Below the pieces are notes generated by a model. The model searched no databases, was not told the DNA's origin, and saw only the letters and a program-made list of their open reading frames with translations. From Escherichia coli (GTDB taxonomy: Bacteria; Pseudomonadota; Gammaproteobacteria; Enterobacterales; Enterobacteriaceae), in the NCBI RefSeq assembly GCF_003018255.1, contig NZ_CP027440.1: a stretch of 64,000 bases of DNA, one strand, 5' to 3'. The first letter of the stretch is position 1; each line of letters starts with the position of its first letter. Both the position numbers and the translations under genes were made by a program. Positions 19,114 to 55,756 of the stretch are shown one piece after another.

Positions 19114-19152
19114 AGTGACACCTTCTTTACGGAGTTTTTCTTTATCAGCCAA

Positions 19153-19623
19153 CTATGCGCTGATTGTTGTGTATACCGAGCGTAACTATAAAAAATTGCT
19201 CTGCAGAAAATATTGCCAACATGCATGACAGACTCGTGTAAAAATCGTGCTAACATAACAAATTATTGTCATTGCCGAATCATGCAACACAGCGTTAATC
19301 AGTGTTGAAAGTAATAATTACTGTCAAACTTTCACAATAAAAAATTGCCATCATGATATAATAAAATTGAAACAAATATCACAGTTCCTTCCTCGAACTA
19401 AACTCAACGAAATATTACTCGCGATTAAACTCACTAGCCAACGCAATTAATTCACATTGAAATATCCACAAAACAACTAATAAATTAACAACATATAGTT
19501 CATAAAAGCAATTTTATAATATTTGTTCTCTATTAATTTTCTCATTAGCCGATTAAGTCAGCCATTCTTTTTCCTCGCTTTTTTTTATAGTCATATCGTC
19601 AAAAAAATCCAGGCGAGGTCTTT
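19153..19623. promoter_or_regulatory. AT-rich divergent control region between pduF and pduA
   Basis: 470-bp AT-rich intergenic region between divergent pduF and pduA; regulatory sites inferred from position only. Confidence 0.5.
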
Positions 19624-19908
19624 ATGCAACAAGAAGCGTTAGGAATGGTAGAAACCAAAGGCTTAACTGCCGCCATAGAGGCCGCAGACGCCATGGTGAA
19701 GTCGGCAAATGTTTTGCTGGTCGGCTACGAAAAAATAGGTTCCGGGCTGGTGACCGTCATCGTTCGTGGTGATGTCGGGGCGGTAAAAGCGGCAACAGAC
19801 GCAGGTGCCGCAGCTGCGCGTAACGTCGGCGAAGTAAAAGCCGTACATGTTATTCCCCGCCCACATACCGATGTCGAAAAAATCTTACCAAAGGGAATTA
19901 ACCCATGA
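19624..19908 (+). CDS. pduA: BMC shell protein PduA
   Basis: 94-aa BMC-H domain protein ([30 protein letters not shown]...). Confidence 0.92.
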
Positions 19909-20717
19909 GCAGCAATGAACTGGTCAAACAGATCATGGCGCAGGTCATCGCTCGCGTAGCGACGCCAGAGCATGAGGTTCTCCCGAAAACCACTCATCAA
20001 ATACGAGAGACGGCTATGGCAGAAAAAAGCTGCACGTTAACAGAATTTGTTGGCACCGCTATTGGCGACACTGTAGGTCTGGTCATTGCGAACGTTGATA
20101 GCGCCCTGTTGGACGCGATGAAGCTTGAAAAACGCTATCGTTCCATTGGCATTCTGGGTGCGCGTATTGGCGCAGGGCCACACATTATGGCCGCTGATGA
20201 AGCGGTAAAAGCCACCAACACTGAAGTTATTAGCATTGAACTTCCTCGGGATACTAAAGGCGGTGCCGGACACGGCTCATTGATCCTCTTAGGTGGCAAC
20301 GATGTTTCCGACGTGAAACGCGGTATTGAAGTCGCCCTGAAAGAACTCGATCGGACCTTTGGCGATGTCTATGCCAACGAAGCCGGACATCTTGAGCTGC
20401 AATATACCGCCCGCGCCAGCTATGCACTGGAAAAAGCGTTTGGTGCACCATTGGGACGGGCTTGCGGCGTTATTGTCGGCGCTCCGGCTGCTGTGGGTGT
20501 TCTGATGGCAGACACCGCGCTGAAGTCCGCCAATGTGGATGTTGTGGCATACAGCTCCCCCGCTCAAGGCACCAGCTACAGCAATGAAGTCATTCTGATT
20601 ATCTCGGGTGACTCCGGCGCAGTCCGCCAGGCGGTCATCTCCGCACGCGAAATCGGTAAAACCGTGCTTTCGACTCTCGGCGATACACCGAAAAACGATC
20701 GCCCTTCCTACATCTGA
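19905..20717 (+). CDS. pduB: BMC shell protein PduB (tandem BMC domains)
   Basis: 270 aa; overlaps the pduA stop. Confidence 0.9.
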
Positions 20718-20735
20718 ATTCTCTGAGGCAGATTT

Positions 20736-22400
20736 ATGAGATCGAAAAGATTTGAAGCACTGGCAAAACGCCCGGTCAACCAGGACGGTTTCGTTAAAGA
20801 GTGGATTGAAGAAGGCTTCATTGCGATGGAAAGCCCGAACGATCCTAAACCGTCAATCAAAATTGTTAACGGCGTCGTTACCGAACTGGATGGAAAACCC
20901 GCCAGCCAGTTTGACCTGATCGACCACTTTATCGCCCGCTACGGCATCAATCTCGCGCGCGCCGAAGAAGTCATCGCGATGGATTCGGTAAAACTTGCCA
21001 ATATGTTGTGCGATCCAAATGTCAAACGTAGCGATATCGTTCCCCTTACCACAGCAATGACGCCTGCAAAAATCGTCGAAGTGGTTTCGCAGATGAACGT
21101 GGTAGAGATGATGATGGCGATGCAGAAAATGCGCGCCCGTCGAACACCATCACAACAGGCTCACGTCACCAACGTTAAAGATAACCCGGTACAAATTGCC
21201 GCCGACGCAGCTGAAGGCGCATGGCGCGGGTTTGATGAACAGGAAACCACCGTTGCCGTTGCTCGCTATGCACCGTTCAACGCCATCGCCCTGCTGGTCG
21301 GCTCACAGGTGGGACGTCCGGGCGTCTTGACCCAGTGTTCACTGGAAGAAGCCACCGAACTGAAACTCGGTATGTTAGGCCACACCTGTTACGCCGAAAC
21401 AATTTCTGTCTATGGTACAGAACCTGTTTTCACCGATGGCGATGATACCCCGTGGTCAAAAGGGTTTCTCGCGTCATCCTATGCGTCTCGCGGCTTAAAA
21501 ATGCGCTTTACTTCCGGCTCCGGCTCTGAAGTACAGATGGGTTACGCGGAAGGCAAATCAATGCTTTATCTCGAGGCTCGATGCATTTACATCACCAAAG
21601 CCGCAGGCGTTCAGGGTCTGCAGAATGGTTCGGTAAGCTGTATCGGTGTTCCATCAGCTGTGCCATCAGGCATCCGCGCAGTATTAGCGGAAAACTTAAT
21701 TTGCTCATCGCTGGATCTGGAATGCGCCTCCAGTAATGACCAGACCTTTACCCACTCGGATATGCGCCGTACCGCACGTTTCCTGATGCAATTTCTGCCA
21801 GGTACCGACTTTATCTCTTCCGGTTTTTCCGCTGTGCCGAACTACGACAACATGTTTGCTGGTTCAAACGAAGATGCTGAAGACTTCGATGATTACAACG
21901 TCATTCAGCGTGACCTGAAGGTTGATGGCGGCCTGCGACCAGTACGCGAAGAAGATGTTATCGCTATCCGCAATAAAGCCGCTCGCGCTTTACAGGCTGT
22001 CTTTGCCGGTATGGGACTACCGCCTATTACCGATGAAGAAGTCGAAGCGGCAACCTATGCCCACGGTTCAAAAGATATGCCTGAGCGCAATATTGTAGAA
22101 GACATCAAGTTCGCCCAGGAGATTATCAATAAAAACCGGAACAGCCTGGAAGTGGTGAAAGCCCTGGCGCAAGGCGGTTTTACCGATGTCGCCCAGGACA
22201 TGCTCAACATGCAAAAAGCAAAACTGACCGGCGATTATCTCCATACCTCAGCCATCATCGTCGATGACGGACAAGTGCTCTCTGCGGTCAATGACGTCAA
22301 TGATTACGCCGGACCGGCTACAGGTTACCGCCTGCAAGGGGAACGCTGGGAAGAGATCAAAAATATTCCCGGTGCACTTGATCCCAACGAAATTGACTAA
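20736..22400 (+). CDS. pduC: Propanediol dehydratase large subunit
   Basis: 554 aa, B12-dependent diol dehydratase alpha subunit. Confidence 0.92.
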   Translation: MRSKRFEALAKRPVNQDGFVKEWIEEGFIAMESPNDPKPSIKIVNGVVTELDGKPASQFDLIDHFIARYGINLARAEEVIAMDSVKLANMLCDPNVKRSDIVPLTTAMTPAKIVEVVSQMNVVEMMMAMQKMRARRTPSQQAHVTNVKDNPVQIAADAAEGAWRGFDEQETTVAVARYAPFNAIALLVGSQVGRPGVLTQCSLEEATELKLGMLGHTCYAETISVYGTEPVFTDGDDTPWSKGFLASSYASRGLKMRFTSGSGSEVQMGYAEGKSMLYLEARCIYITKAAGVQGLQNGSVSCIGVPSAVPSGIRAVLAENLICSSLDLECASSNDQTFTHSDMRRTARFLMQFLPGTDFISSGFSAVPNYDNMFAGSNEDAEDFDDYNVIQRDLKVDGGLRPVREEDVIAIRNKAARALQAVFAGMGLPPITDEEVEAATYAHGSKDMPERNIVEDIKFAQEIINKNRNSLEVVKALAQGGFTDVAQDMLNMQKAKLTGDYLHTSAIIVDDGQVLSAVNDVNDYAGPATGYRLQGERWEEIKNIPGALDPNEID

Positions 22401-22409
22401 GGGTGAGAA

Positions 22410-23078
22410 ATGGAAATTAACGAAAAATTACTGCGTCAGATTATCGAAGACGTGCTGGCAGAAATGCAAACCAGCGACAAGCCCGTTTCATTTCGCGCAC
22501 CTGTCTCTGCAACTGCCTCTTCCGCGCCAGATACCGGAAATTTTCTGACCGAAATTGGCGAAGCCCAACAAGGCACTCAGCAAGATGAAGTCATTATTGC
22601 TGTAGGCCCGGCGTTCGGCCTGGCGCAAACCGTCAATATCATCGGTATTCCGCATAAAAACATTTTGCGCGAAGTGATTGCCGGTATCGAAGAAGAAGGC
22701 ATTAAAGCCCGTGTGATTCGCTGCTTTAAATCGTCCGATGTCGCATTCGTAGCAGTCGAAGGCGATCGTCTTAGTGGTTCAGGTATTGCTATCGGTATTC
22801 AGTCGAAAGGCACAACGGTTATCCACCAGCAGGGACTTCCTCCCTTGTCTAACCTGGAACTTTTCCCACAAGCGCCTTTGTTGACGCTGGATACTTATCG
22901 TCAGATTGGCAAAAACGCCGCGCGTTATGCGAAGCGCGAGTCTCCACAACCGGTGCCGACCCTCAACGATCAAATGGCGCGGCCGAAATACCAGGCCAAA
23001 TCTGCCATTTTGCATATTAAAGAGACGAAGTACGTGGTCACTGGCAAAAAACCGCAAGAACTGCGCGTGACGTTTTAA
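22410..23078 (+). CDS. pduD: Propanediol dehydratase medium subunit
   Basis: 222 aa; position after pduC. Confidence 0.9.
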
Positions 23079-23092
23079 CAAAGGAAACCTTC

Positions 23093-23611
23093 ATGAATAC
23101 CGATGCAATTGAGTCGATGGTCAGGGACGTGTTGAACCGCATGAACAGTTTACAGGATGCAGCTCCTGTTTCTGCGGTCCCCAGCGAGTCAATACAGAGC
23201 GCCAAAGTGACGGATTACCCGCTGGCAAATAAACATCCGGAATGGGTTAAAACAGCAACCAATAAAACGCTCGACGATTTCACTCTGGAAAATGTGCTCA
23301 GCGATAACGTCACCGCCCAGGATATGCGCATTACCCCTGAAACATTGCGTATTCAGGCTGCGATTGCCAGAGATGCTGGTCGCGATCGCCTGGCGATGAA
23401 TTTTGAACGCGCCGCTGAGCTTACCTCAGTACCGGATGATCGCATCCTCGAAATCTACAATGCGTTACGCCCTTATCGTTCGACTAAGCAAGAGCTTATT
23501 GCCATTGCTGACGATCTTGAACGGCGTTATCAGGCCAAAATTTGTGCTGCATTTGTCCGTGAAGCTGCGGAACTTTATGTCGAGCGCAAAAAACTGAAAG
23601 GCGACGATTAA
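23093..23611 (+). CDS. pduE: Propanediol dehydratase small subunit
   Basis: 172 aa; position and size. Confidence 0.9.
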   Translation: MNTDAIESMVRDVLNRMNSLQDAAPVSAVPSESIQSAKVTDYPLANKHPEWVKTATNKTLDDFTLENVLSDNVTAQDMRITPETLRIQAAIARDAGRDRLAMNFERAAELTSVPDDRILEIYNALRPYRSTKQELIAIADDLERRYQAKICAAFVREAAELYVERKKLKGDD

Positions 23612-23620
23612 GGACGAACT

Positions 23621-25453
23621 ATGCGATATATAGCAGGCATTGATATCGGCAACTCATCAACAGAGATTGCGCTGGCAACGCTCAGTGCAACTGGAGAGTT
23701 GTCGTTCTTGAGTAGCGCCCTGGCGGAAACCACCGGAATTAAAGGTACGTTGCGTAACGTCCATGGTATTCAGGAGGCGCTCGCACAGGCAACGAAAAAA
23801 GTCGGCATCAATGTTAGCGATATTTCGCTTATTCGTATCAACGAAGCAACTCCGGTCATTGGTGATGTGGCGATGGAAACCATCACTGAAACCATCATCA
23901 CCGAATCAACCATGATCGGTCACAACCCGAAAACTCCGGGCGGAGTTGGGCTGGGCGTAGGGCTCACCATCACTCCGCAAGAGTTATTAACACGCCCGGC
24001 GGACACACCTTACATCCTGGTGGTGTCATCGGCATTTGATTTTGCCGATATCGCAACGATGATAAACGCCTCCGTACGAGCCGGATATCAGCTGACTGGC
24101 GTTATTCTGCAACGCGACGATGGCGTACTGGTCAATAACCGCCTGGAAATTCCTCTCCCTATTGTGGATGAAGTCCTCTACATCGATCGTATTCCGCTCG
24201 GCATGCTGGCTGCAATTGAAGTTGCCGTTCCCGGGAAAGTTATCGAAACCCTGTCTAACCCGTATGGGATTGCCACCGTTTTCGCCCTCAATGCTGAAGA
24301 GACTAAAAATATTGTTCCTGTCGCGCGGGCGCTAATCGGCAACCGTTCAGCAGTGGTAGTGAAAACGCCTTCTGGCGACGTTAAAGCCCGTTCGATACCC
24401 GCCGGAAATATCGAACTGCTTTCTGCCGGGCGCACAACGCGGGTTGATGTAGCTGCTGGTGCCGATGCCATTATGAAAGCGGTCGGTGAGTGCCCAAAAC
24501 TGGAAAACGTGACGGGAGAACCTGGCTCCAACATCGGCGGAATGCTGGAACATGTTCGCCAGACCATGGCTGAACTGACCAACAAACCCAGCAACGAAAT
24601 TTTTATTCAGGATTTGCTGGCGATAGATACCTCTGTCCCCGTCAACGTAACCGGTGGTCTGGCAGGTGAATTTTCACTGGAACAGGCTGTGGGTATTGCC
24701 TCTATGGTGAAATCCGACCGTCTGCAAATGGCGATGATCGCCAGTGAAATTAAGCAAAAACTGCATGTTGATGTTCAGGTCGGAGGCGCAGAAGCAGAAG
24801 CCGCCATTCAGGGGGCCTTGACTACCCCTGGAACCACACGTCCACTGGCAATTCTGGACTTAGGTGCAGGCTCTACCGATGCCTCCATCATCAATCAGAA
24901 AGGGGAAATAGTTGCCACTCACCTTGCGGGAGCGGGCGACATGGTAACGATGATTATCGCTCGTGAGCTGGGCTTAAATGATCGTTATCTCGCAGAAGAA
25001 ATCAAAAAGTACCCGTTGGCAAAAGTAGAAAGCCTGTTCCACTTACGCCATGAAGATGGCAGCGTTCAGTTCTTCCCTACTCCGCTGTCCCCTCATGTAT
25101 TTGCCCGCGTTTGTGTGGTGAAACCTGACGAACTGGTGCCTATTCTCGGTGATTTGACGCTGGAAAAAGTACGTGCTGTCCGTCGTAGTGCGAAAGAGCG
25201 TGTCTTCGTAACTAATGCCCTGCGCGCGCTACGTCAGGTAAGCCCTGCCGGAAATATTCGCGACATTCCGTTCGTCGTTCTGGTGGGTGGTTCTTCGCTG
25301 GATTTCGAAGTACCGCAATTGGTCACCGACGCGCTGGCACATTATCGACTGGTCGCCGGGCGGGGGAATATCCGTGGTAGCGAAGGTCCGCGCAATGCGG
25401 TAGCTACTGGGCTCCTCATCGCCTGGCACAAGGGGGCGATTCATGGAAAGTAA
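23621..25453 (+). CDS. pduG: Diol dehydratase reactivase large subunit
   Basis: 610 aa, ATPase-like reactivase. Confidence 0.9.
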   Translation: MRYIAGIDIGNSSTEIALATLSATGELSFLSSALAETTGIKGTLRNVHGIQEALAQATKKVGINVSDISLIRINEATPVIGDVAMETITETIITESTMIGHNPKTPGGVGLGVGLTITPQELLTRPADTPYILVVSSAFDFADIATMINASVRAGYQLTGVILQRDDGVLVNNRLEIPLPIVDEVLYIDRIPLGMLAAIEVAVPGKVIETLSNPYGIATVFALNAEETKNIVPVARALIGNRSAVVVKTPSGDVKARSIPAGNIELLSAGRTTRVDVAAGADAIMKAVGECPKLENVTGEPGSNIGGMLEHVRQTMAELTNKPSNEIFIQDLLAIDTSVPVNVTGGLAGEFSLEQAVGIASMVKSDRLQMAMIASEIKQKLHVDVQVGGAEAEAAIQGALTTPGTTRPLAILDLGAGSTDASIINQKGEIVATHLAGAGDMVTMIIARELGLNDRYLAEEIKKYPLAKVESLFHLRHEDGSVQFFPTPLSPHVFARVCVVKPDELVPILGDLTLEKVRAVRRSAKERVFVTNALRALRQVSPAGNIRDIPFVVLVGGSSLDFEVPQLVTDALAHYRLVAGRGNIRGSEGPRNAVATGLLIAWHKGAIHGK

Positions 25454-25793
25454 AGAGCGTGCACCAGCCATCGTTGTCATGGAGATCGGTGACTGTATCA
25501 CTACATGGGATGAAGTGCTTCTTGGCATTGAAGAGGAAGGTATTCCCTTTCGCATTCAACACATTCCGTCAGGTGAAGTTATCGATAGCGCCCGGCTGGC
25601 TGCTCGTCAATCTCCCCTGTTGGTTGGCATTGCCTGCGACCAGGAAAAACTGATTGTGCATTACAAAAACTTACCGGCATCAGCGCCACTGTTTACGCTG
25701 ATGTATCAACAAGATAACCATGCCCGGCGCAGCATTGGCTCTAACGCTGCCCGCCTGGTAAAAGGGATTCCCTTCCGGGAACTCAACTCATAA
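25443..25793 (+). CDS. pduH: Diol dehydratase reactivase small subunit
   Basis: 116 aa; overlaps the pduG stop. Confidence 0.88.
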
Positions 25794-25812
25794 TCCACAG
25801 GAGAAATGCAGT

Positions 25813-26088
25813 ATGAACAACGCACTAGGACTGGTTGAAACAAAAGGGTTAGTTGGCGCAATTGAAGCTGCAGATGCCATGGTTAAATCCGCCAACGTGC
25901 AACTGGTTGGCTATGAAAAGATTGGTTCGGGTCTGATTACGGTGATGGTCCGCGGTGATGTTGGTGCAGTAAAGGCCGCCGTTGATGCAGGAAGCGCTGC
26001 GGCAAGCGCAGTTGGCGAAGTGAAATCCTGCCATGTCATCCCGCGCCCACACAGTGATGTTGAGGCTATTTTACCTAAATCGGCATAA
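25813..26088 (+). CDS. pduJ: BMC shell protein PduJ
   Basis: 91-aa BMC-H protein, near-identical core to PduA. Confidence 0.92.
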
Positions 26089-26111
26089 CCCCATTTGCTA
26101 AGGAGCACAGC

Positions 26112-26534
26112 GTGAAGCAATCACTGGGATTACTTGAAGTCAGTGGTCTGGCACTCGCCATCAGTTGCGCAGATGCTATGGCAAAAGCCGCGTCCATCAC
26201 GCTGGTTGGCCTTGAGAAGACCAATGGCTCAGGCTGGACGCTCATCAAAATCACCGGTGACGTCGCCTCGGTTAATGCGGCGATCGCGACGGGAGCCAGT
26301 TTCGCCGGACAGCGAAATGGCCTCGTCGCACACAAAGTGATTGCCCGTCCGGGAGACGGCATTCTGCCCCACACAACTGAAGCATTGACTGTGACGGTTG
26401 AAACAAGCGAAACACCAGCAACAACCGTCATCTCAGAGATTATCAGTTGTAATTTGTGTCTTGACCCGGCATGTCAGCGGCAAAAAGGTGAGCCCCGCTC
26501 ACTTTGCCTGCACGCCAATAAGCGAGGGGAGTAA
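26112..26534 (+). CDS. pduK: BMC shell protein PduK
   Basis: 140 aa, GTG start, BMC domain plus Cys-containing C-terminal tail. Confidence 0.85.
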   Translation: MKQSLGLLEVSGLALAISCADAMAKAASITLVGLEKTNGSGWTLIKITGDVASVNAAIATGASFAGQRNGLVAHKVIARPGDGILPHTTEALTVTVETSETPATTVISEIISCNLCLDPACQRQKGEPRSLCLHANKRGE

Positions 26535-26536
26535 CA

Positions 26537-27169
26537 GTGGATAAACAAACCTTGCAGGAAACAGTGAGCCAGATTCTGGATGAGATGCGCGAGCGCCCTA
26601 TCCCTCTGGGTGTTTCCAGTCGTCATATTCATCTTTCAACAGCGGATTATTTGCGTCTTTTTCCTGAACAACCGATTAGCGAGAAAAAGCCGTTAATGCA
26701 ACCTGGCCAATTCGCTGCTGAACAGGTTGTTACGCTGGAGGGACCAAAAGGCAAATTACACAACGTTCGCTTGTTGGGGCCGCTACGCAATGCAAGCCAG
26801 GTGGAAATTTCCCGGACGGACGCCAGAACGTTAGGGATCACCGCCCCGCTACGCATGTCAGGCGATCTCAGCGGCACTCCGGGGATTCGTTTGATAAGCC
26901 CATTTGCGGAACTGGAGATCACATCTGGCGTCATTGTCGCGCAACGGCATATTCATATGTCTCCGCTGGATGCCCTGATTTATGGCGTTACGCATGGCGA
27001 TAAAGTGGCGGTTGCCATTGAAGGTGATGAGCGAGGACTGATATTCGAAAACGTCACTGTTCGCGTCTCTCCGGATATGCGTCTTGAAATGCATATTGAT
27101 ACCGATGAAGCCAACGCCGCAGGGGCTGATAGCCCTGACGTTTTTGCCACACTGGTGTCAGTGACATGA
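26537..27169 (+). CDS. pduL: Phosphate propanoyltransferase
   Basis: 210 aa. Confidence 0.88.
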   Translation: MDKQTLQETVSQILDEMRERPIPLGVSSRHIHLSTADYLRLFPEQPISEKKPLMQPGQFAAEQVVTLEGPKGKLHNVRLLGPLRNASQVEISRTDARTLGITAPLRMSGDLSGTPGIRLISPFAELEITSGVIVAQRHIHMSPLDALIYGVTHGDKVAVAIEGDERGLIFENVTVRVSPDMRLEMHIDTDEANAAGADSPDVFATLVSVT

Positions 27170-27657
27170 ATAACATGCTGATGCAACGTATTGTTGACGA
27201 AGTGGTTTTTCGCCTTAAACAACGTGCGGGAAAAACACTCGTGCTGACTGTTTTTCAACTGCGAGACGCCAGCGTTCAAGAGAGCGTTCATCAGTATGCG
27301 TCATTACAAATCCGATATGTCGATCTGCCGCTGCTGCGACAACTTGCGGAGAACGAAACGTCAGATCGAGCAGCAATCCAGATACACGAAGCGTTAGCCT
27401 GGGGAATGCACATTCAATTGTCGTTGCAGCGTCATTTCCTGAACGCCATTGAATTGAAGACTCTCGCCCGTCTACCGCTAAGCTGGTGCGACGAACAAGG
27501 GCAACCGATCTACCTACATCATGATCGACTTTTAAGTTATGTCGATATCGCACAGTTAAGCTCGGGAATATTGGTGTTACAGCGGAAATGTTGTGTGACC
27601 GCACTGGCTCGTGAAGCGGCAATTACCCGAAATATTCAGTTAATCAGGCAGGAGTAA
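27166..27657 (+). CDS. pduM: Microcompartment protein PduM
   Basis: 163 aa; position. Confidence 0.85.
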   Translation: MNNMLMQRIVDEVVFRLKQRAGKTLVLTVFQLRDASVQESVHQYASLQIRYVDLPLLRQLAENETSDRAAIQIHEALAWGMHIQLSLQRHFLNAIELKTLARLPLSWCDEQGQPIYLHHDRLLSYVDIAQLSSGILVLQRKCCVTALAREAAITRNIQLIRQE

Positions 27658-27660
27658 CCT

Positions 27661-27936
27661 ATGCATCTGGCTCGAGTCACTGGCGCGGTAGTATCCACGC
27701 AAAAATCACCTTCTCTGATCGGGAAAAAACTGCTGCTGGTTCGCCAGGTCAGTGCTGACGGCGAACTGCCTCTCACGCCATTAACCGGCGACGAAGTTGC
27801 CGTTGATTCCGTCGGCGCAGGCGTTGGTGAGTTGGTACTCCTCAGCAGTGGTTCCAGCGCCAGACATGTGTTTTCCGGCCCTAACGAAGCCATCGACCTG
27901 GCAGTGGTCGGCATTGTCGATACGCTTTCGCGCTAA
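27661..27936 (+). CDS. pduN: BMC vertex (pentamer) protein PduN
   Basis: 91 aa, EutN/CcmL-type ([15 protein letters not shown]...). Confidence 0.9.
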
Positions 27937-27947
27937 GGAGCTGAAAG

Positions 27948-28955
27948 ATGGCAATTTATACCCGAACAGGTGATTCAGGAAGTACGTCTTTATTTACCGG
28001 ACAGCGCGTCAGCAAAACTCATCTACGTGTCGAAACCTATGGCACGCTGGATGAACTGAACGCGACACTCAGTCTGTGTTATTGCGCCACCGCCATCGAA
28101 AGCCATCGCATCTTACTGGAAGCCATTCAACAACAGATATTTTGGTTTTGCGCCGAACTCGCCAGTGAAAGCGAACAGCCGTCAGCGCAGCAGCGTTACA
28201 TCGGTACGGAAGAAATTGCCGCGCTGGAAAACGCGATCGATAGCGCAATGAACGCCGCCCCCCCGGTTCACAGCTTCATTCTGCCTGGTCGATGTGAAGC
28301 TGCAAGCCGCATGCATTTCGCCCGCACGGTGGCTCGACGGGCTGAAAGACGTCTGGTTGAACTGACAACAGAAACCACCGTCCGGAATGTTTTGCTGCAC
28401 TATATCAACCGACTTTCCGATTGCCTGTATGCCCTCGCCCGCGTGGAAGACAACGTTGCTCATCAAAACCTGATGATTCAGGAAATCACAAAACGTTATC
28501 ACGAAGCCAACCACACACCAGCATTGAAGGAACGCACAATGCCGCTCACTTTTCAGGATCTTCACCAGCTCATTCGTAGTGCGGCAATGCGCGCAGATGA
28601 ACTGCATATTCCCGTTGTCATCAGCATTGTCGATGCCAACGGAACAGAAAGTGTTACCTGGCGGATGCCTGATGCCCTGTTGGTCAGCAGTGAACTGGCA
28701 CCGAAAAAAGCCTGGACCGCCGTGGCGATGAAAACGGCAACCCACAAACTTGCTGATACCGTGCAACCCGGCGCGCCGCTTTACGGGCTCGAAAGCCATA
28801 TGCAAGGCAAAGTCGTCACTTTTGGTGGCGGCTTCCCCCTCTGGCGTGACGGAAAATTGCTTGGCGGGCTTGGCATCAGCGGCGGTAGCGTTGAACAAGA
28901 CATGGATATTGCCCAAAGCGCAATGGCGGCAATTAACGTGGGAGTAAACCAATGA
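27948..28955 (+). CDS. pduO: Corrinoid adenosyltransferase PduO
   Basis: 335 aa; PduO-type ATP:cob(I)alamin adenosyltransferase N-domain. Confidence 0.9.
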   Translation: MAIYTRTGDSGSTSLFTGQRVSKTHLRVETYGTLDELNATLSLCYCATAIESHRILLEAIQQQIFWFCAELASESEQPSAQQRYIGTEEIAALENAIDSAMNAAPPVHSFILPGRCEAASRMHFARTVARRAERRLVELTTETTVRNVLLHYINRLSDCLYALARVEDNVAHQNLMIQEITKRYHEANHTPALKERTMPLTFQDLHQLIRSAAMRADELHIPVVISIVDANGTESVTWRMPDALLVSSELAPKKAWTAVAMKTATHKLADTVQPGAPLYGLESHMQGKVVTFGGGFPLWRDGKLLGGLGISGGSVEQDMDIAQSAMAAINVGVNQ

Positions 28956-30337
28956 ATAACTCTGAATTAGAAACACTGATCCGCAATATTCTGCGTGAGC
29001 AGCTTGTCCCCGCTACGCAACGAGCGCAAAGAAACGCTATTTTCCAGACTGTTGATGAAGCGGTCTGCGCAGCACACCAGGCCTTTTTACGCTTTCAACA
29101 GTGCCCGCTTAAAACCCGTAGCGCCATTATCAGCGCCATTCGCGAAGAATTAATGCCCCGCCTTACCGAACTGGCAGAAGAAAGCGCCAAAGAAACGGGG
29201 ATGGGAAATAAAGAAGATAAGTACCTAAAAAACAAAGCGGCACTCGATAACACGCCAGGAATTGAAGATTTAACCACCACTGCACTAACCGGTGATGGTG
29301 GCATGGTTTTGTTTGAATACTCCCCGTTTGGGGTGATTGGCTCGGTCACGCCAAGCACCAATCCCACGGAAACCATCATTAACAACAGCATCAGCATGCT
29401 GGCAGCAGGTAATAGCGTCTACTTCAGTCCACACCCGGGAGCCAAATACGTTTCGTTAAAACTGATTACCACAATCGAAGACATCGCGTTTCGCTGTAGT
29501 GGCATTCACAACCTGATCGTTACCGTATCTGAACCAACCTTTGCCGCAACCGAACAAATGATGGCGCACCCTAAAATCAGCGTTCTGGCGATTACCGGTG
29601 GCCCGGGGATCGTCGCCATGGGAATGAAAAGTGGCAAGAAAGTGATTGGTGCCGGTGCGGGTAACCCACCCTGCATTGTCGATGAAACGGCGGATATTGT
29701 GAAAGCCGCCGAAGATATCATCAACGGCGCTTCATTTGATTACAACCTGCCGTGTATCGCTGAAAAAAGCCTGATTGTCGTAGCATCAGTGGCAGAGTAT
29801 TTAATTCAGCAGATGCAAAGTTTTGGCGCGCTTCTTCTTAACTATGAGCAAACGGAGAAATTGCGTGCAATTTGCCTGCCAGACGGTAGCGCCAACAAAA
29901 AACTGGTTGGGAAAAGCCCATCAGCCTTGCTGGAAGCAGCGGGCCTCCCTTTGCCCGCAAAAGCGCCGCGCCTACTGATTGCTGTTGTTGACGCCGATGA
30001 TAGTTGGGTTACTTGTGAACAACTGATGCCAATGCTGCCCATTGTGAAGGTCAACGATTTTGACAGCGCTCTCGCCCTGGCGTTGAAAGTGGAAGACGGC
30101 TTGCACCACACGGCAATTATGCACTCGCAGAACGTCTCACGACTCAACCTTGCCGCGCGCGTTATGCAAACCTCAATCTTTGTCAAAAACGGCCCCTCCT
30201 GGGCGGGTATTGGCGTCGGCGGCGAAGGCTTTACGACCTTTACCATTGCAACACCGACTGGAGAGGGTACAACGTCAGCACGGACTTTTGCCCGCTCACG
30301 ACGCTGCGTGTTAACCAGCGGCTTTTCCATTCGCTAG
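28952..30337 (+). CDS. pduP: CoA-acylating propionaldehyde dehydrogenase
   Basis: 461-aa aldehyde dehydrogenase-family protein. Confidence 0.9.
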   Translation: MNNSELETLIRNILREQLVPATQRAQRNAIFQTVDEAVCAAHQAFLRFQQCPLKTRSAIISAIREELMPRLTELAEESAKETGMGNKEDKYLKNKAALDNTPGIEDLTTTALTGDGGMVLFEYSPFGVIGSVTPSTNPTETIINNSISMLAAGNSVYFSPHPGAKYVSLKLITTIEDIAFRCSGIHNLIVTVSEPTFAATEQMMAHPKISVLAITGGPGIVAMGMKSGKKVIGAGAGNPPCIVDETADIVKAAEDIINGASFDYNLPCIAEKSLIVVASVAEYLIQQMQSFGALLLNYEQTEKLRAICLPDGSANKKLVGKSPSALLEAAGLPLPAKAPRLLIAVVDADDSWVTCEQLMPMLPIVKVNDFDSALALALKVEDGLHHTAIMHSQNVSRLNLAARVMQTSIFVKNGPSWAGIGVGGEGFTTFTIATPTGEGTTSARTFARSRRCVLTSGFSIR

Positions 30338-30347
30338 AGAAACGGAA

Positions 30348-31460
30348 ATGAAAACTTTTTCACTGCAGACGCGTTTATACAGCGGAACGGGAAGTCTCAA
30401 CATACTGAACCGTTTCACGAATAGGCACATCTGGATTATTTGCGACGTCTTTCTGGCACACTCACCACTCATTGACACGTTGCATCAGGCGCTGCCCGAC
30501 AGTAATCGTCTCAGTATTTTTAGCGAAATAACGCCCGACCCAACTATCCAGACCGTGGTGAAAGGCATTGCGCAAATGCAGACTTTACGCCCGGATGTGG
30601 TTATCGGTTTTGGCGGCGGTTCTGCCCTGGACGCTGCAAAAGCGATTGTCTGGTTTGGTCGCCAGTGTGGCATTGAAATTGAAACCTGCGTAGCCATTCC
30701 TACCACCAGCGGTACCGGTTCCGAAGTGACCAGTGCTTGTGTCATCAGCGATCCTGAGAAAGGGATTAAATATCCCCTTTTCGATAATGCACTTTATCCG
30801 GATATCGCGATCCTTGATCCATCTTTGGTCGTCAGCGTGCCACCGGCGATAACGGCCAATACCGGGATGGATGTTTTAACCCATGCGCTTGAAGCTTATG
30901 TTTCTCCCCGCGCCAGCGACTTCACGGATGCACTGGTCGAAAAAGCCGTGCAAATTGTTTTTCAATACCTGCCCACTGCAGTGAAGAAAGGCGATTGTCT
31001 TTCCACCCGTGGCAAAATGCATAATGCATCGACGCTTGCAGGAATAGCCTTTAGCCAGGCCGGACTCGGTTTAAACCATGCACTTGCTCATCAACTCGGC
31101 GGACAGTTTCATCTGCCGCACGGCCTGGCGAATGCGCTCCTGCTCACGGCGGTAATCCGCTTTAATGCTGGCGATCCGCGCGCAGCCAAACGCTACGCCC
31201 GGCTGGCGAAAACGTGCCATTTATGCCCGGACAACGCCAATGACACCGCCAGCCTGAATGCACTTATTCAACATATTGAACAGCTTAAAACAACCTGTAC
31301 GCTGCCAACACTTGCCAATGCGCTGAAAGAAAAAAAAGCAGAATGGTCAATACGCATACCAGATATGGTTCAGGCAGCGCTGGCGGATGCAACGTTGCGT
31401 ACCAACCCGCGTGCGGCTGATGCCTCCGCGATTGCAGAACTGCTCGAGGAGTTGTTATGA
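30348..31460 (+). CDS. pduQ: 1-propanol dehydrogenase (iron-containing ADH)
   Basis: 370-aa Fe-ADH family protein. Confidence 0.9.
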   Translation: MKTFSLQTRLYSGTGSLNILNRFTNRHIWIICDVFLAHSPLIDTLHQALPDSNRLSIFSEITPDPTIQTVVKGIAQMQTLRPDVVIGFGGGSALDAAKAIVWFGRQCGIEIETCVAIPTTSGTGSEVTSACVISDPEKGIKYPLFDNALYPDIAILDPSLVVSVPPAITANTGMDVLTHALEAYVSPRASDFTDALVEKAVQIVFQYLPTAVKKGDCLSTRGKMHNASTLAGIAFSQAGLGLNHALAHQLGGQFHLPHGLANALLLTAVIRFNAGDPRAAKRYARLAKTCHLCPDNANDTASLNALIQHIEQLKTTCTLPTLANALKEKKAEWSIRIPDMVQAALADATLRTNPRAADASAIAELLEELL

Positions 31461-32800
31461 ACGTCGAGTTAACCTCCTGCGATGACCAGACCATCCGCGA
31501 GCGAGTACAAGCAGCAGGTGTCGTGGGTGCTGGCGGCGCAGGTTTTCCAACCCATATTAAGCTACAAGCGCGTGTTGACACGTTCCTGGTGAATGCGGCG
31601 GAATGCGAACCAATGTTGAAAGTGGATCAACAGTTAATGGTGCAGCAAGCCAGCCGCCTGCTTCGCGGTGTTCACTATGCTATGAAAGCCACCGGGGCCA
31701 GTAGCGGAATCATCGCGCTGAAAGAAAAATATCAACGGGCAATAAACGCACTCACACCCCTATTACCACCGGATATCCGCCTGCATATTTTGCCCGATGT
31801 TTACCCCGCAGGAGACGAAGTGCTGACCATCTGGATGGCAACTGGTCGCCGCGTCCCACCCGCGGCATTACCCGTTAGCGTCGGTGTGGTGGTCAATAAT
31901 GTTCAAACCGTACTTAATATTGCCAGAGCCGTCGAGCAACAGTATCCAGTGACGCGCCGCACACTCACTATTAATGGTGCAGTGGCGAAACCAATAACGG
32001 TAACCGTCCCCATCGGCATGTCTTTACGTGAAGTCCTGGCGCTGGCGGGCGGCGCAACAGTAGATGCGCCTGGTTTTATCAATGGCGGGCCGATGATGGG
32101 AAGTTTGATCACATCGCTCGACACCCCCGTCAGCAAAACCACTGGCGGCTTGCTGGTTTTACCCAACTCTCATTCACTGATCCAACTTCGAATGCAGAAT
32201 GACCGCAGCGTACTTACCGTCGCGAAAACTGTTTGTGAGCAATGCCGCTTGTGTACCGATCTCTGCCCACGTCATTTAGTCGGTCACGAACTGGCCCCCC
32301 ATTTATTAGTACGTGCGGTTAACTACCAACAGCTCGCTACGCCACAACTGTTACTGACGGCGCTCACCTGTTCGGAGTGCAACGTCTGCGCCAGCGTCGC
32401 CTGTCCGGTAGGAATTTCACCAATGCGCATAAACCGCCTGCTTAAGCAGGAATTACGCGCACAAAATCTCCGCTACGAAGGTGCCTTAAATCCTGCTGAT
32501 CCCATGGCAAATTATCGACTGATTCCCGTAAAACGGCTGGTAACCAGACTGGGCCTAATCCCGTGGTATCAGGATGCGCCATTGTCTGAACAGGTGCCTC
32601 AGACCGAAAAAGTGACGTTATTGTTACGCCAGCACATCGGTGCCAGCGCAATTGCGTGTGTACAAAAAGGCGATCGCGTCGTTCATGGGCAATGTGTAGG
32701 TCAAATTCCACACGGCACATTAGGTGCCCCGATTCATGCCAGTATTGATGGCATGGTCAGCGATGTGACAGAAAACGCAATTACGCTTGTGAGAGGTTAA
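31457..32800 (+). CDS. pduS: Cobalamin reductase PduS (Fe-S flavoprotein)
   Basis: 447 aa with two Cys clusters ([25 protein letters not shown]). Confidence 0.9.
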
Positions 32801-32802
32801 CC

Positions 32803-33357
32803 ATGTCGAAAGCGGTAGGTATTTTAGAACTTAGCAGTATCGCGAAAGGGATGGAAACCGGCGACGCCATGCTGAAAAGCGCCAACGTTGAGTTACTGGT
32901 CAGCAAAACGCTATGCCCCGGAAAATTTCTGCTGATGCTCGGTGGCGATGTGGGCGCGGTGCAACAGGCCATCAACAGCGGTGCTTCCGTTGCTGGTGAA
33001 ATGCTGGTCGACAGTCTTGTCCTGCCGAATATTCATCCCAGTCTCCTTTCTGCAATCAGCGGACTGAACCATGTTGAGCAGCACCGGGCTGTCGGCGTAG
33101 TCGAAACCTGGAGTGTCGCTGCCTGCATTGACGCTGCCGATTGTGCTGTCAAAGCTGCGAATGTCATTCTCGTTCGCGTACATATGGCTTTTGGCATTGG
33201 CGGAAAATGCTACATGGTGGTTGCTGGCGATATTTCAGATGTTAATAACGCGGTCTCTGTCGCCAGCGAGCGTGCGGGAGAAAAAGGTTTGTTGGTCTAT
33301 CGGTCGGTGATTGCCCGTCCACATGAAGCCATGTGGCGTCAGATGGTGGAGGGATAA
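32803..33357 (+). CDS. pduT: BMC shell protein PduT (tandem BMC)
   Basis: 184 aa. Confidence 0.9.
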
Positions 33358-33707
33358 TGACAACTCAGCACACAACTGAACGGATGATTCAGGAATATGT
33401 CCCTGGTAAGCAGGTCACGCTGGCACATGTCATCGCCAATCCAGGGAAGGATCTGTTTAAGAAATTGGGTTTACCAGACACCGTTTCTGCTATTGGCATT
33501 CTGACGATTACCCCCAGCGAAGCATCTATCATCGCATGCGATATCGCCACAAAATCAGGCGCTGTAGAGATCGGTTTTCTTGATCGTTTTACCGGTGCCG
33601 TAGTGCTGACTGGTGATGTTTCTGCTATTGAATATGCACTTAGCCAGGTTACCCGTACGCTGGGTGAAATGATGCGCTTTACCGCCTGCCCCATTACGCG
33701 GACCTGA
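33357..33707 (+). CDS. pduU: BMC shell protein PduU
   Basis: 116 aa from [18 protein letters not shown]; start overlaps the pduT stop (taATG). Confidence 0.88.
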
Positions 33708-33711
33708 CGTT

Positions 33712-34155
33712 ATGCAACGTATGATGCTTATCGGCCCCAGCCAGTGCGGAAAAACGTCACTCACGCAATGTCTGCGTGGCGAAAATATCCATTATCAGAA
33801 AACGCAGGCAATCGTCTGGTCCCCGACCACCATTGATACACCAGGCGAATACCTCGAAAACCGCAGCCTTTACAGTGCATTGTTGGTCAGTGCCTGCGAA
33901 GCAGACATTATCGCACTGGTACTTAATGCGGACGCACCGTGGTCACCTTTTTCGCCAGGCTTTACCTCGTCAATGAATCGCCCGGTCATTGGAGTAGTAA
34001 CCAAAGCAGATTTAGCCAGTATGGAACAAATATCTTTGGTGAAATGTTGGTTACGGGAAGCTGGAGCGCACAACGTGTTAGTAACCAGTGCGGTTAATAA
34101 CAATGGAGTTACAGAACTTTTTGCCTTGCTGCATACAGAAGAAGGCTGTCGCTAA
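33712..34155 (+). CDS. pduV: Small GTPase-like protein PduV/EutP family
   Basis: 147 aa with P-loop [10 protein letters not shown]. Confidence 0.88.
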
Positions 34156-34255
34156 TTTCGATAGGTTCTCAGATGAGAATGATGACGGTGATACACAGAT
34201 AAGAATCAATGAGCAATGAGGGTTGCCGGGCAACCCTCATTGAATAAAACAGGAA

Positions 34256-36012: not shown

Positions 36013-36486
36013 TTAGTGATGTTTTGGCTGCACCGCAACATACATTTCGATATCCCAGTACCCATCTTCCGCGCCATTGTTCAAGTAAACCTCGAAGCAG
36101 GGCTTTGGTAACATTTCATAAGCACTGTCCTGCAAGAGGCTATTAAAGAACTGATACCAGGGTTTAGCAAAATCATCACCGACTACACGAGCCACCGCCA
36201 CCGCATACTGACCACCTGAAATTTCTGTCAGAATGACGCCCTCACTGTTTTCGGGGAGCGTAAAGTTATTCGGTACCGTCACGACGGTGTCGCAGCGTAA
36301 TTTTTCGGCGGGTGTTTCATCTGGATTGTCGTAATAGACAGCAACCCACTCCTTCGGCACAATATTTTTGCTATCTATCCACATCATCAACTGCTCAAAA
36401 CCTTTCTTTACCGTCTGCTCCCACGGGCCAACAAGATGGAAACCTGCAACGGTACGTTTCTCTTCCTGCTTAATCTCGTAGTTCAT
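36013..36486 (-). CDS. sbmC: DNA gyrase inhibitor SbmC/GyrI
   Basis: 157 aa ([38 protein letters not shown]...). Confidence 0.9.
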
Positions 36487-36502
36487 GACGCCTCCATTAA
36501 CA

Positions 36503-36518
36503 CTGTTTTTATATACAG
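36503..36518. promoter_or_regulatory. LexA (SOS) box upstream of sbmC
   Basis: ctgtttttatatacag matches CTG-N10-CAG with an AT-rich core, 17 bp upstream of the sbmC start codon. Confidence 0.7.
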
Positions 36519-36604
36519 TATAGTTGCAATATTAAAACCACAAGGAATGAGTGTTGATTATGCGAGCAGACTCGCACTCCTGCCAGTCTGCTGCAAAAGA
36601 AAGG

Positions 36605-37777
36605 TCAGGCCTTATGGTGGAAATAATCACTCAGGCGGGAAAACATGCCGCCTTCCCCGACAGATTCCAGGGTAACCAGCGGCCAGTGCGCCACCTGTTT
36701 ATCACGGTCGTAAAGTTCAATTTCCCCTACCCGCTGATGGGCGCTAATTGGCGCGGTGAGCTCTTTACCATCAAGGGTATATTTGGCTTTGATATGTGGA
36801 ATTTCGGCTTTCGGTAGCACCATCCAGAACTCTTGTTCCGTTCCCAGGTCGATATTTTCTTTATCGCCATACCAGATGCGTTCCGTTCCGACCTTTTTCC
36901 CACGGTGCAAAATTTGCACCGTAGTAAAGTTTTGTTGCCCCCAACGCAGTAATTTTCTTGCCTCTTCCTCACGACCTTTTGCACTGTCAGCCCCCATTAC
37001 CACTGCAATGAGACGACGCTGCCCATCTACAGCCGAAGCAATGAGATTAAACCCGGCACCAGAAGTATGACCCGTTTTCAGGCCGTCAACATTCATGGTT
37101 TTATCCCACAACAACCCGTTACGGTTTTGCTGGGTGATACCGTTCCAGGTGAGGCTTTTCTCACTGTACATATGATAAAACTCGGGCTCGCCGTGGATGA
37201 TAGCGCGAGAAAGCACAGCTAAATCATAAGCCGAGCTATGCTGGCCAGGTGCATCCAGACCATGCACTGTTTCAAAATGCGTATCCTTGAGATGCAGCTT
37301 CTCGGCATAGTTGTTCATCATTGCAACAAACTGCCGTTGCCCACCGGCAATATAGTCAGCCAGTGCAACACAAGCATCATTTCCGGAATCCACAATTAAA
37401 CCACGGCTTAAATCACGTACCGATACGCGATCGCCCTCTTTCAAAAACATCAGTGAAGAACCGACAAACACTGGATTATCTTTCGCCCACGCATCGCGCC
37501 CTACGGTGACAATATCGTCTGGCGTAATTCGATGACTATCGATAGCGCGATCCACGACATAACCCGTCATCAGCTTTGTCAGGCTGGCGGGATTGCGCTG
37601 TTGATGCTCATTACCCGCGGTGAGGATCTGTCCGGTGGTGTAATCCATCAATACCCAGGACCCGGCATGAATCTCTGGAGGCTGAGGTGAAAAAGGAATG
37701 TTTTCCGCCGCAAAACCAGACGATAAGTTAAAAACGAACAAAGAAGCAGCAATAATAAGACGGCGTTTCAACAGCAA
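36605..37777 (-). CDS. dacD: D-alanyl-D-alanine carboxypeptidase (PBP6b)
   Basis: 390-aa class A low-molecular-weight PBP with signal peptide and a SxxK active-site motif. Confidence 0.9.
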   Translation of the reverse strand: MLLKRRLIIAASLFVFNLSSGFAAENIPFSPQPPEIHAGSWVLMDYTTGQILTAGNEHQQRNPASLTKLMTGYVVDRAIDSHRITPDDIVTVGRDAWAKDNPVFVGSSLMFLKEGDRVSVRDLSRGLIVDSGNDACVALADYIAGGQRQFVAMMNNYAEKLHLKDTHFETVHGLDAPGQHSSAYDLAVLSRAIIHGEPEFYHMYSEKSLTWNGITQQNRNGLLWDKTMNVDGLKTGHTSGAGFNLIASAVDGQRRLIAVVMGADSAKGREEEARKLLRWGQQNFTTVQILHRGKKVGTERIWYGDKENIDLGTEQEFWMVLPKAEIPHIKAKYTLDGKELTAPISAHQRVGEIELYDRDKQVAHWPLVTLESVGEGGMFSRLSDYFHHKA

Positions 37778-37979: not shown

Positions 37980-39407
37980 ATGATGAATGACGGTAAGCAA
38001 CAATCTACCTTTTTGTTTCACGATTACGAAACCTTTGGCACGCACCCCGCGTTAGATCGCCCTGCACAGTTCGCAGCCATTCGCACCGATAGCAAATTCA
38101 ATGTCATCGGCGAACCCGAAGTCTTTTACTGCAAGCCCGCGGATGACTATTTACCCCAGCCTGGAGCAGTATTAATTACCGGTATTACCCCGCAGGAGGC
38201 ACGGGCGAAAGGAGAAAACGAAGCCGCGTTTGCCGCCCGTATTCACTCGCTTTTTACCGTACCGAAGACCTGTATTCTGGGCTACAACAATGTGCGTTTC
38301 GACGACGAAGTCACACGCAACGTTTTTTATCGTAATTTCTACGATCCTTACGCCTGGAGCTGGCAGCATGATAACTCGCGCTGGGATTTACTGGATGTTA
38401 TGCGTGCCTGTTATGCCCTGCGCCCGGAAGGAATAAACTGGCCTGAAAATGATGACGGTCTACCGAGCTTTCGCCTTGAGCATTTAACCAAAGCGAATGG
38501 TATTGAACATAGCAACGCCCACGATGCGATGGCTGATGTGTACGCCACTATTGCGATGGCGAAACTGGTAAAAACGCGTCAGCCACGCCTGTTTGATTAT
38601 CTCTTTACCCATCGTAATAAACACAAACTGATGGCGTTGATTGATGTTCCGCAGATGAAACCCTTGGTTCACGTTTCCGGAATGTTTGGGGCATGGCGCG
38701 GCAATACCAGCTGGGTGGCACCGCTGGCGTGGCATCCTGAAAATCGCAATGCCGTAATTATGGTGGATTTGGCAGGAGACATTTCGCCATTACTGGAGCT
38801 GGATAGCGACACATTGCGCGAGCGTTTATATACCGCAAAAGCCGATCTTGGCGATAACGCCGCCGTTCCGGTTAAGCTGGTGCATATCAATAAATGTCCG
38901 GTACTGGCCCAGGCGAATACGCTACGCCCGGAAGATGCCGACCGACTGGGAATTAATCGTCAGCATTGCCTCGATAACCTAAAAATTCTGCGTGAAAATC
39001 CGCAAGTGCGTGAAAAAGTGGTGGCGATATTCGCGGAAGCCGAACCGTTTACGCCTTCAGATAACGTGGATGCACAGCTTTATAATGGCTTTTTCAGTGA
39101 CGCCGATCGTGCAGCAATGAAAATTGTGCTGGAAACCGAGCCGCGTAATTTACCGGCACTGGATATCACTTTTGTTGATAAACGAATTGAAAAACTGTTG
39201 TTCAATTATCGAGCGCGCAACTTCCCGGGGACGCTGGATTATGCCGAGCAGCAACGCTGGCTGGAGCACCGCCGCCAGGTCTTCACGCCAGAGTTTTTGC
39301 AGGGCTACGCTGATGAATTGCAGATGCTGGCACAACAGTATGCTGATGACAAAGAGAAAGTGGCGCTGTTAAAAGCGCTTTGGCAGTACGCGGAAGAGAT
39401 CGTCTGA
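37980..39407 (+). CDS. sbcB: Exodeoxyribonuclease I
   Basis: 475 aa from MMNDGKQQSTFLFHDYETFG (DEDDh exonuclease motif); the listed ORF has a 24-codon upstream extension. Confidence 0.9.
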   Translation: MMNDGKQQSTFLFHDYETFGTHPALDRPAQFAAIRTDSKFNVIGEPEVFYCKPADDYLPQPGAVLITGITPQEARAKGENEAAFAARIHSLFTVPKTCILGYNNVRFDDEVTRNVFYRNFYDPYAWSWQHDNSRWDLLDVMRACYALRPEGINWPENDDGLPSFRLEHLTKANGIEHSNAHDAMADVYATIAMAKLVKTRQPRLFDYLFTHRNKHKLMALIDVPQMKPLVHVSGMFGAWRGNTSWVAPLAWHPENRNAVIMVDLAGDISPLLELDSDTLRERLYTAKADLGDNAAVPVKLVHINKCPVLAQANTLRPEDADRLGINRQHCLDNLKILRENPQVREKVVAIFAEAEPFTPSDNVDAQLYNGFFSDADRAAMKIVLETEPRNLPALDITFVDKRIEKLLFNYRARNFPGTLDYAEQQRWLEHRRQVFTPEFLQGYADELQMLAQQYADDKEKVALLKALWQYAEEIV

Positions 39408-39415
39408 AACAAAAA

Positions 39416-39442
39416 AGCCGGAGCGACAAACTCCGGCTTTTT
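39416..39442. terminator. Bidirectional Rho-independent terminator (sbcB / plaP)
   Basis: Hairpin agccggag-cgacaaa-ctccggct flanked by A and T runs in the 73-bp gap between convergent genes. Confidence 0.7.
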
Positions 39443-39480
39443 GAGATTTACCGGATGATTATGTCATCCGGTTTGTAAGA

Positions 39481-40839
39481 TTACGCTACGTCTTCGTACT
39501 GCGGAACCGGGTTACGGAAACTCTTGGTTACGCAAGCCAGGTAAATCAGACCGATAGCAGCCCAGATCAGACCCAGAACCATTGAGCTTTCTTCCAGGTT
39601 AACCCACAGCGCACCAACGGTCAGCGCACCACACATCGGCAGGAACAGATACTGGAAGTGATCTTTCAGCGTCTTGTTACGCTTCTCACGGATCCAGAAC
39701 TGCGAGATGACCGACAGGTTAACGAAGGTGAACGCCACCAACGCACCAAAGTTAATCAGCGCCGTAGCCATTACCAGGTCGAAGTTGATTGCCAGCAGGG
39801 CAATCGCGCCAACCAGGATGATGTTCATCGCCGGAGTACGCCATTTCGGGTGTACATAACCGAAGAAGCTTTTCGGGAACACGCCGTCACGACCCATTAC
39901 GTACATCAGACGCGCTACGCCTGCGTGCGCCGCCATACCGGACGCCAGTACGGTAATGGTGGAGAAGATCAGCGCGCCAACCTGGAACGCTTTACCCGCA
40001 ACGTACAGCATGATTTCAGGCTGTGACGCATCCGGATCTTTAAAGCGAGAGATATCCGGGAAGTACAGCTGCAGGAAGTAAGTTGCAAAGATGAAGATCA
40101 TGCCGCCGATCAGCGCGGTCAGGAAAATCGCACGCGGGATCACGCGCTCTGCATCTTTGGTTTCTTCCGACAGGTTGCTGATGCCGTCAAAACCGGTAAA
40201 GGAGAAGCACAGGATTGTCGCCCCGGTAATCATCGGGATAACATGCGCATCGCCAGACCAGAACGGACGAGTGCTCGCCAGCGTACCAGCGCCTTCACCT
40301 TCAAATACGCCATAAACAACCATGCCCAGAATCACCGCGATCAGCACTACCTGCAACACGACGATTACAGTGTTGAAGTTCGCTACGGATTTCAGACTAC
40401 GCAGGTTAAAGGCGGTCATAAAGGCCACCAGCGCCACCACAAACATCCACGATGGAATGGAAGGCACCAGAGCTTCAAAATAGATTTTCGCCAGCAGAAT
40501 GTTGATCATCGGCGCGAACAGATAGTCGAGCAGAGAAGACCAACCCACCATAAAGCCGACAGTCGGGCTAATGGATTTCTGGGCGTAAGTGTATGCAGAG
40601 CCAGCAGAAGGATAGCGGCGAACCAGCTTCCCGTAGCTCAGAGCCGTAAACAGGATCGCAATCAATGCGAACGCATAGGCTGTCGGCACATGACCATCCG
40701 TGAGGCCTGAAACGATACCAAAAGTATCAAACAGCGTCATCGGCTGCATATAGGCTAGACCCATCATTACAACCGGAACTAACGTAAGCGTTTTACGCAA
40801 TTCCACGCGAGAGGTGTTTGGAGTAACGTTATGCGACAT
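39481..40839 (-). CDS. plaP: Putrescine importer (APC family amino-acid/polyamine transporter)
   Basis: 452 aa from [31 protein letters not shown], 12-TM APC-family layout. Confidence 0.9.
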
Positions 40840-55723: not shown

Positions 55724-55756
55724 ACCCTCTCCTTTAAAAACATTTTTTATAAGAAA

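Follow-up and report, generated by a model that had tools for sequence, protein, structure and literature searches.

The sbmC locus and its LexA box

We analysed a 64,000-nt stretch of Escherichia coli DNA (hereafter the window; RefSeq assembly GCF_003018255.1, contig NZ_CP027440.1) in which the region between dacD and sbmC carries the features listed in Table 1. SbmC (GyrI) is a DNA gyrase inhibitor that protects gyrase from poisons and DNA-damaging agents, and its gene has counted among the textbook SOS genes of E. coli since 1995. The 157-aa open reading frame of the window is identified as SbmC by RefSeq and by the NCBIfam equivalog NF007451, which it matches with 302 bits against a cut-off of 179. 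RefSeq annotates the gene in 5,418 of 5,426 complete E. coli genomes. Its neighbours are the same as in K-12, i.e. yeeA downstream and dacD and sbcB upstream.

Direct reading of the plus strand gives the 16-mer CTGTTTTTATATACAG (= ctgtttttatatacag) at 36503-36518, exactly where an earlier note, made from the sequence alone, had placed a consensus LexA box. On the minus strand, TACTGTATATAAAAACAGTG is followed by TTAATGGAGGCGTCATG; the GGAGG Shine-Dalgarno sequence comes directly after the box region, and 14 nt separate the end of the full 20-mer from the ATG. The box is thus intergenic, between dacD and sbmC and before the sbmC ATG, and the description of it as lying immediately upstream of sbmC was accurate. 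The word 'consensus' fits part of the site: the CTGT and ACAG positions are perfect and the spacer is A/T at 8/8 positions, but the 20-mer as a whole agrees with TACTG(TA)5CAGTA at only 17 of 20 positions, one fewer than the K-12 box.

Table 1. Annotated and predicted features of the dacD-sbmC region, in window coordinates.
Feature	Position	Strand	Remarks
sbmC (gyrI) CDS, 157 aa, DNA gyrase inhibitor, the regulated gene	36013..36486	-	NCBIfam, RefSeq
Shine-Dalgarno sequence GGAGG of sbmC	36491..36495	-	4 nt before the ATG; GGAG invariant in alignment A3
LexA operator (SOS box), full 20-mer TACTGTATATAAAAACAGTG	36501..36520	sbmC sense	core CTGT-N8-ACAG at 36503-36518
Predicted sbmC transcription start, inside the LexA box	36507..36512	-	7 nt downstream of the -10 candidates
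Predicted -10 hexamer TATACT	36517..36522	-	C at -13; overlaps box positions 1-4
Predicted -35 element TTGTGG	36538..36543	-	TTG (36541-36543) conserved
CRP-S site core TGCGAGTCTGCTCGCA (Sxy-dependent, non-canonical CRP site)	36561..36576		centre 36568.5; footprinting, PMC1635313
Stable hairpin directly after the dacD stop codon (TGA 36605-36607)	36561..36595	-	-22.9 kcal/mol

Some further features were observed elsewhere in the window. At about 16900-34200, next to tmaR-yeeA-sbmC, it carries a complete, intact pdu operon for propanediol utilisation together with pocR, pduF and a cobalamin riboswitch; at this place K-12 carries the CP4-44 prophage, with only a yoeF remnant. The annotation of the closest genome marks cobU as frameshifted, and after the riboswitch the cbi genes are seemingly absent. 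At about 39400-39500, sbcB is followed directly by plaP; tsuA and tsuB (yeeE/yeeD), which separate these two genes in K-12, are missing. The stretch 54600-64000 is low in GC (28-37% over most of its length) and has no match to the O146-family O-antigen cluster of JNE23-011, which is otherwise the closest genome; the O-antigen gene cluster of the window strain is different from that of JNE23-011. According to the annotation of a 98.3%-identical genome, positions 237-12705 hold four tRNA-Asn genes within 13 kb and, among them, an inverse-autotransporter/invasin remnant, shiA, amn, yeeN, yeeO, cbl and nac.

The motif CTGT-N8-ACAG (CTGTNNNNNNNNACAG) has a single match in the 64-kb window when both strands are scanned, namely the sbmC box. 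By itself this pattern is weak evidence, because 0.61 matches per window are expected by chance and at least one match occurred in 38 of 100 shuffles. We therefore replaced the count of the bare pattern, as too weak, by a matrix for the full 20-mer combined with shuffles. The matrix was built from the 18 K-12 SOS boxes of PMC3009722 (Table 4), from which the sbmC box was removed to avoid circularity, leaving 17; counts were symmetrised over both strands, and sites were scored by a Lewis-type heterology index (HI).

With this matrix, the 20-mer at 36501-36520 is the best site in the window (HI 3.69). Its score falls within the range of the 17 reference boxes (HI 1.8 to 11.9) and ranks 4th of the 18 published boxes, and the K-12 sbmC box scores 2.17 with the same leave-sbmC-out matrix. 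None of 300 dinucleotide shuffles of the window reached 3.69, the lowest minimum being 6.72. A LexA matrix scan was the check that the earlier note had proposed, naming a poor score as the outcome that would speak against its claim, and the score obtained is clearly a good one. At the level of sequence, the full 20-mer is strong evidence for a LexA box. The runner-up 20-mer (60135-60154, HI 9.57) lies inside a 456-aa open reading frame, in DNA of 28-31% GC; since its score was reached in 12 of 300 shuffles, we dismissed this candidate second LexA site as a chance match.

Predicted promoter elements and the CRP-S site

Promoter-like elements were analysed in an alignment of 20 species (alignment A3), whereas spacers and single positions were counted in 65 species. 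The predicted -10 hexamer, whose first base lies two positions ahead of the box, is TATACT in E. coli, and other species have TATAGT or TACACT. Of the 65 species, 61 carry T(-12), 54 carry A(-11) and all 65 carry T(-7). Information content is higher on the left flank of the box (1.3-1.6 bits) than on the mirror-image right flank (0.3-0.8 bits). As a symmetric LexA dimer would not impose such an asymmetry, it points to an additional constraint on the left side, as from a -10 element. In the TTG of the predicted -35 element, the G is invariant in alignment A3 and both T residues are conserved to at least 90%. The TTG and the hexamer would form a standard -35/-10 geometry, with a spacer of 16-18 nt in 50 of 65 species and of 15 nt in the window. 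A second register, TACTGT at 36515-36520, can also be drawn, and the Escherichia spacer of only 15-16 nt leaves the -10 register uncertain by 2-3 nt.

Both the conserved -10-like hexamer and the predicted start of transcription share bases with the LexA box. An approximate boundary from a K-12 tiling array, equivalent to window position 36612, agrees with this prediction and puts the start of the transcript near 36512 at a resolution of ~7 nt (PMC3009722, Table 8). The portions available to us of the supplementary tables of genome-wide TSS papers contained no sbmC entry. A sigma-70 prediction tool cited in PMC5999292 predicts no sigma-70 use at sbmC.

Upstream of the predicted -35 element lies a block that is identical in the window and K-12, and whose core TGCGAGTCTGCTCGCA carries the TGCGA half-site cores of the 22-bp CRP-S sites, both halves being of the C6/G17 type (C at position 6, G at position 17). 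The sbmC site was classed as CRP-S by Cameron and Redfield (2006; PMC1635313). By footprinting, TGCGA-N6-TC(A/G)CA is kept in 51 of 65 species, and the assignment rests on this conservation because matches to a generic CRP pattern with 2 mismatches are not above chance in number (23 found versus 27 expected). In E. coli, the centre of the site precedes the predicted start by 58.5 nt if the -10 register is TATACT and by 60.5 nt if it is TACTGT; 31 species have a distance of 61.5 nt and 14 one of 60.5 nt, with an overall range of 58.5-61.5 nt. Class I sites have their centre around -62, or farther upstream by another helical repeat, a position reckoned here from the predicted start. In K-12, Sxy induces sbmC 6-fold, and this induction is abolished in crp and cyaA mutants (PMC1635313); the same study states, citing Zheng 2004, that the sbmC promoter operates by a class I mechanism. 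The geometry predicted from our alignments, which was derived independently, agrees with that mechanism.

With the CRP-S promoters of the gamma-proteobacterial competence regulon, sbmC shares TGCGA-N6-TCGCA, a spacing that would be of class I as reckoned from the predicted start and, in K-12, the dependence on CRP, cAMP and Sxy. Unlike them, sbmC is not a DNA-uptake gene, and it has a LexA operator over its predicted -10/start region. We also considered a sigma-54 reading of CTGGCAGGAGTGC and rejected it, since the spacing from GG to GC is 7 nt rather than 10.

The 3' arm of the hairpin at the end of dacD coincides with the CRP-S site. This hairpin folds with z = -4.73, a stability that none of 200 shuffles attained, and it is followed by no U-tract. 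Its pairing is kept through changes on both arms in Leclercia (GCAGGCT/AGCCTGC) and in Enterobacter sp. Bisph1 (GCAGCC/GGCTGC). The element at 36561-36595 is probably a dacD 3'-end structure, which may share bases with the CRP-S site.

A promoter scan raised the question of whether transcription might begin further upstream. The scan returned CTGGCA-18-CATAAT (36586-36557), a 9-of-12 sigma-70-like match in which CATAAT and much of the spacer are strongly conserved across species; with a start near 36550, the box would sit at about +32 to +51, and a genuine LexA operator would then block elongating polymerase downstream of the promoter as a roadblock. We regard this arrangement as improbable. 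The conserved block is better explained by the published CRP-S sequence TGCGA-N6-TC(A/G)CA followed by TA (PMC1635313), and a -35/-10 spacer has no reason to show palindromic conservation. Moreover, the class I mechanism calls for a start about 60 nt downstream of the block, not inside it (PMC1635313), the tiling-array boundary is near 36512 rather than 36550 (PMC3009722), and Kluyvera georgiana has CATATC, in which the key T of the supposed -10 element is lost.

Variation of the operator in E. coli and across Enterobacteriaceae

The K-12 sbmC box, TACTGTATATAAAAACAGTA, is listed among the SOS boxes upstream of UV-induced genes (PMC3009722). It belongs to the same gene, has the same position 14 nt before the ATG and shares 19 of 20 bases with the window box. 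Over the 151 bases that comprise the dacD-sbmC intergenic region and the flanking gene ends, the window and K-12 differ by three substitutions: box position 20 (G in the window, A in K-12), the second base downstream of the box (T in the window, C in K-12) and a site ten bases upstream of the box (A in the window, T in K-12). With G instead of A at position 20, the HI is ~1.5 units higher than for the K-12 box. Neither this one-base difference at the edge of the box nor the published second input through CRP-S and Sxy had been mentioned in the earlier note.

Among complete E. coli genomes, 657 carry exactly the 61-bp haplotype of the window and 625 carry the K-12 haplotype. All of six sampled E. 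coli alleles have the same inner 17 bp, ACTGTATATAAAAACAG (box positions 2-18), and variation affects box positions 1, 19 and 20 and the four bases before the Shine-Dalgarno sequence. We infer that the window allele, which has G at position 20, would act in the same way as that of K-12.

The umuDC box of K-12 is likewise TACTGTATATAAAAACAGTA, i.e. identical to the K-12 sbmC box, so that the window box differs from it only at position 20; gene and promoter context are different. Treatment of K-12 with AZT induced umuD 56-fold and sbmC 5.7-fold (PMC11228462). Given that the two genes have the same box, the sequence of the box alone does not set the response.

In one strain, E. coli CH468 (NZ_CM166354.1), a group II intron is inserted immediately behind the ...AAACAGT of the LexA box, in sbmC sense (1380-1620 of locus L007). 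The intron begins with GTGCG, encodes an LtrA reverse transcriptase/maturase and parts the operator and promoter from the Shine-Dalgarno sequence and sbmC.

One SbmC scan of species-representative genomes gave 69 loci, nearly all from Enterobacteriaceae. At each locus, the best LexA-like 20-mer was sought in the 200 bp upstream of the gene, and 545 stretches of 200 bp from the same loci served as controls. In 65 of 69 species the best site lay 14-24 nt before the sbmC ATG with an HI <14, and the median HI over all 69 loci was 5.45. The best HI in the control stretches was never below 15.1. Positions 4, 5, 7, 16, 17 and 18 are invariant across the 65 boxes. G occupies position 20 in 27 of them, which makes the window variant a commonly tolerated state.

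The box is absent at four loci. Two of these are distant homologues (Tolumonas and an Armatimonadetes MAG), and in Intestinirhabdus the best site is 166 nt upstream. At the sole Escherichia locus that lacks the box, that of Escherichia sp. MOD1-EC7003 (1427-1800 of locus L073), a 17-bp deletion has removed box positions 6-20; here, sbmC itself diverges and is truncated after about codon 88.

The two half-sites differ in how they vary. On the promoter side, CTG is found in 32 of the 65 species, GTG in 23 (Enterobacter, Lelliottia and Leclercia) and ATG in 10 (the Klebsiella/Raoultella group). CAG of the right half-site is invariant, and ACAG is invariant or nearly so. In species of the Klebsiella/Raoultella type, TGTGA-N6-GCACA (in one species TGCGA-N6-TCACA) precedes the predicted start by only 45.5-47.5 nt, in place of TGCGA at 58.5-61.5 nt. 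This suggests a different promoter architecture in the group, as judged from the motif and its predicted spacing.

Could an AT-rich palindrome have arisen here by chance, or could the site be no more than the -10 region of sbmC, without LexA function in this strain? The frequency expected for bare CTGT-N8-ACAG would allow it, the left end of the box doubles as a -10-like hexamer, and the left CTG is unconserved in half of the species. We nevertheless consider it very improbable: the shuffles never reproduced the score of the full 20-mer, the right half-site ACAG is retained across the 65 species although it has no promoter role, and sbmC depends on LexA in vivo in K-12, whose allele shares 19 of the 20 bases (PMC11228462). 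Least credible of all is a role at the RNA level, in which a 5'-leader hairpin beside the Shine-Dalgarno sequence would act on translation or stability: a 7-bp stem can be drawn, but it folds with only -6 kcal/mol (z = -0.61; equalled or surpassed by 46 of 200 shuffles), a start inside the box would leave the 5' arm untranscribed and the remaining leader unstructured (-0.9 kcal/mol), and the left arm changes from C to G or A while the invariant right arm offers no compensation, the opposite of what a conserved helix would lead one to expect. On the z-score and these one-sided changes, we rejected the RNA hairpin.

A proposed promoter model: repression by LexA and a second, activating input

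Taken as a whole, the evidence favours, with a probability that we put at roughly 0.9, the reading of 36501-36520 as the LexA operator of the E. coli sbmC (gyrI) promoter, which would occlude the -10/start region of a promoter with CRP-S/Sxy input. In undamaged cells, a LexA dimer would occupy the two CTGT/ACAG half-sites and, by covering the predicted -10 element and start, would prevent formation of the RNA polymerase open complex. Upon DNA damage, RecA-stimulated self-cleavage of LexA would free the operator and allow transcription of sbmC. Activation would come from cAMP-CRP and Sxy, acting through the CRP-S site from a class I position about 58-61 nt upstream of the start. The sbmC promoter may thus be a weak, CRP/Sxy-activated promoter, at which the operator would gate the response to starvation and stationary phase.

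The sequence, the score, the conservation and the promoter-like elements come from the present analysis, and the dependence on LexA, CRP, cAMP and Sxy is taken from the literature on K-12 and Salmonella. In K-12, sbmC is induced 5.7-fold by AZT and shows a 9.5-fold dependence on LexA cleavage, its box having a published HI of 2.8 (PMC11228462). In Salmonella, the sbmC box is 21 bp away from the ATG, and nalidixic acid induces the gene 3.55-fold (PMC8072944). Induction of sbmC in stationary phase and a second, late peak of activity have also been described (PMC5999292; PMC10886550), and the CRP-S input, together with the sigma-S-like C before TATACT, would fit both.

The suggestion of SOS induction in the earlier note is therefore well founded, on the rank of the box in the matrix, its conservation in 65 of 69 species and the K-12 and Salmonella literature, and the published SOS lists to which that note had pointed do include the K-12 sbmC box (PMC3009722). 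The note had also called the box expected biology, and rightly so: the sbmC LexA box is already known, ordinary and conserved in related bacteria. The site can serve as a positive control, in that a reader with only the sequence at hand located a true operator at its exact coordinates. To our knowledge, the sbmC box is present in every published list of SOS boxes.

Only the natural variation is mildly new, that is, the outer positions of the box in E. coli and the promoter-side half-site in about half of the species. Replacement of CTG by GTG or ATG in species that retain the CRP-type site and the right half-site, along with the E. coli polymorphism at outer positions 1, 19 and 20 and 4 nt before the Shine-Dalgarno sequence, raises the possibility, which we hold only tentatively and think rather unlikely, that SOS control of sbmC varies between lineages, with LexA repression weakened or retuned and CRP and Sxy left as the main control. 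The variation at the operator edge and in the half-site could be used to study the trade-off between repressor affinity and promoter function on shared bases. More broadly, sbmC would have a two-input promoter, repressed by LexA and activated through CRP-S and Sxy, whose geometry is conserved across Enterobacteriaceae.
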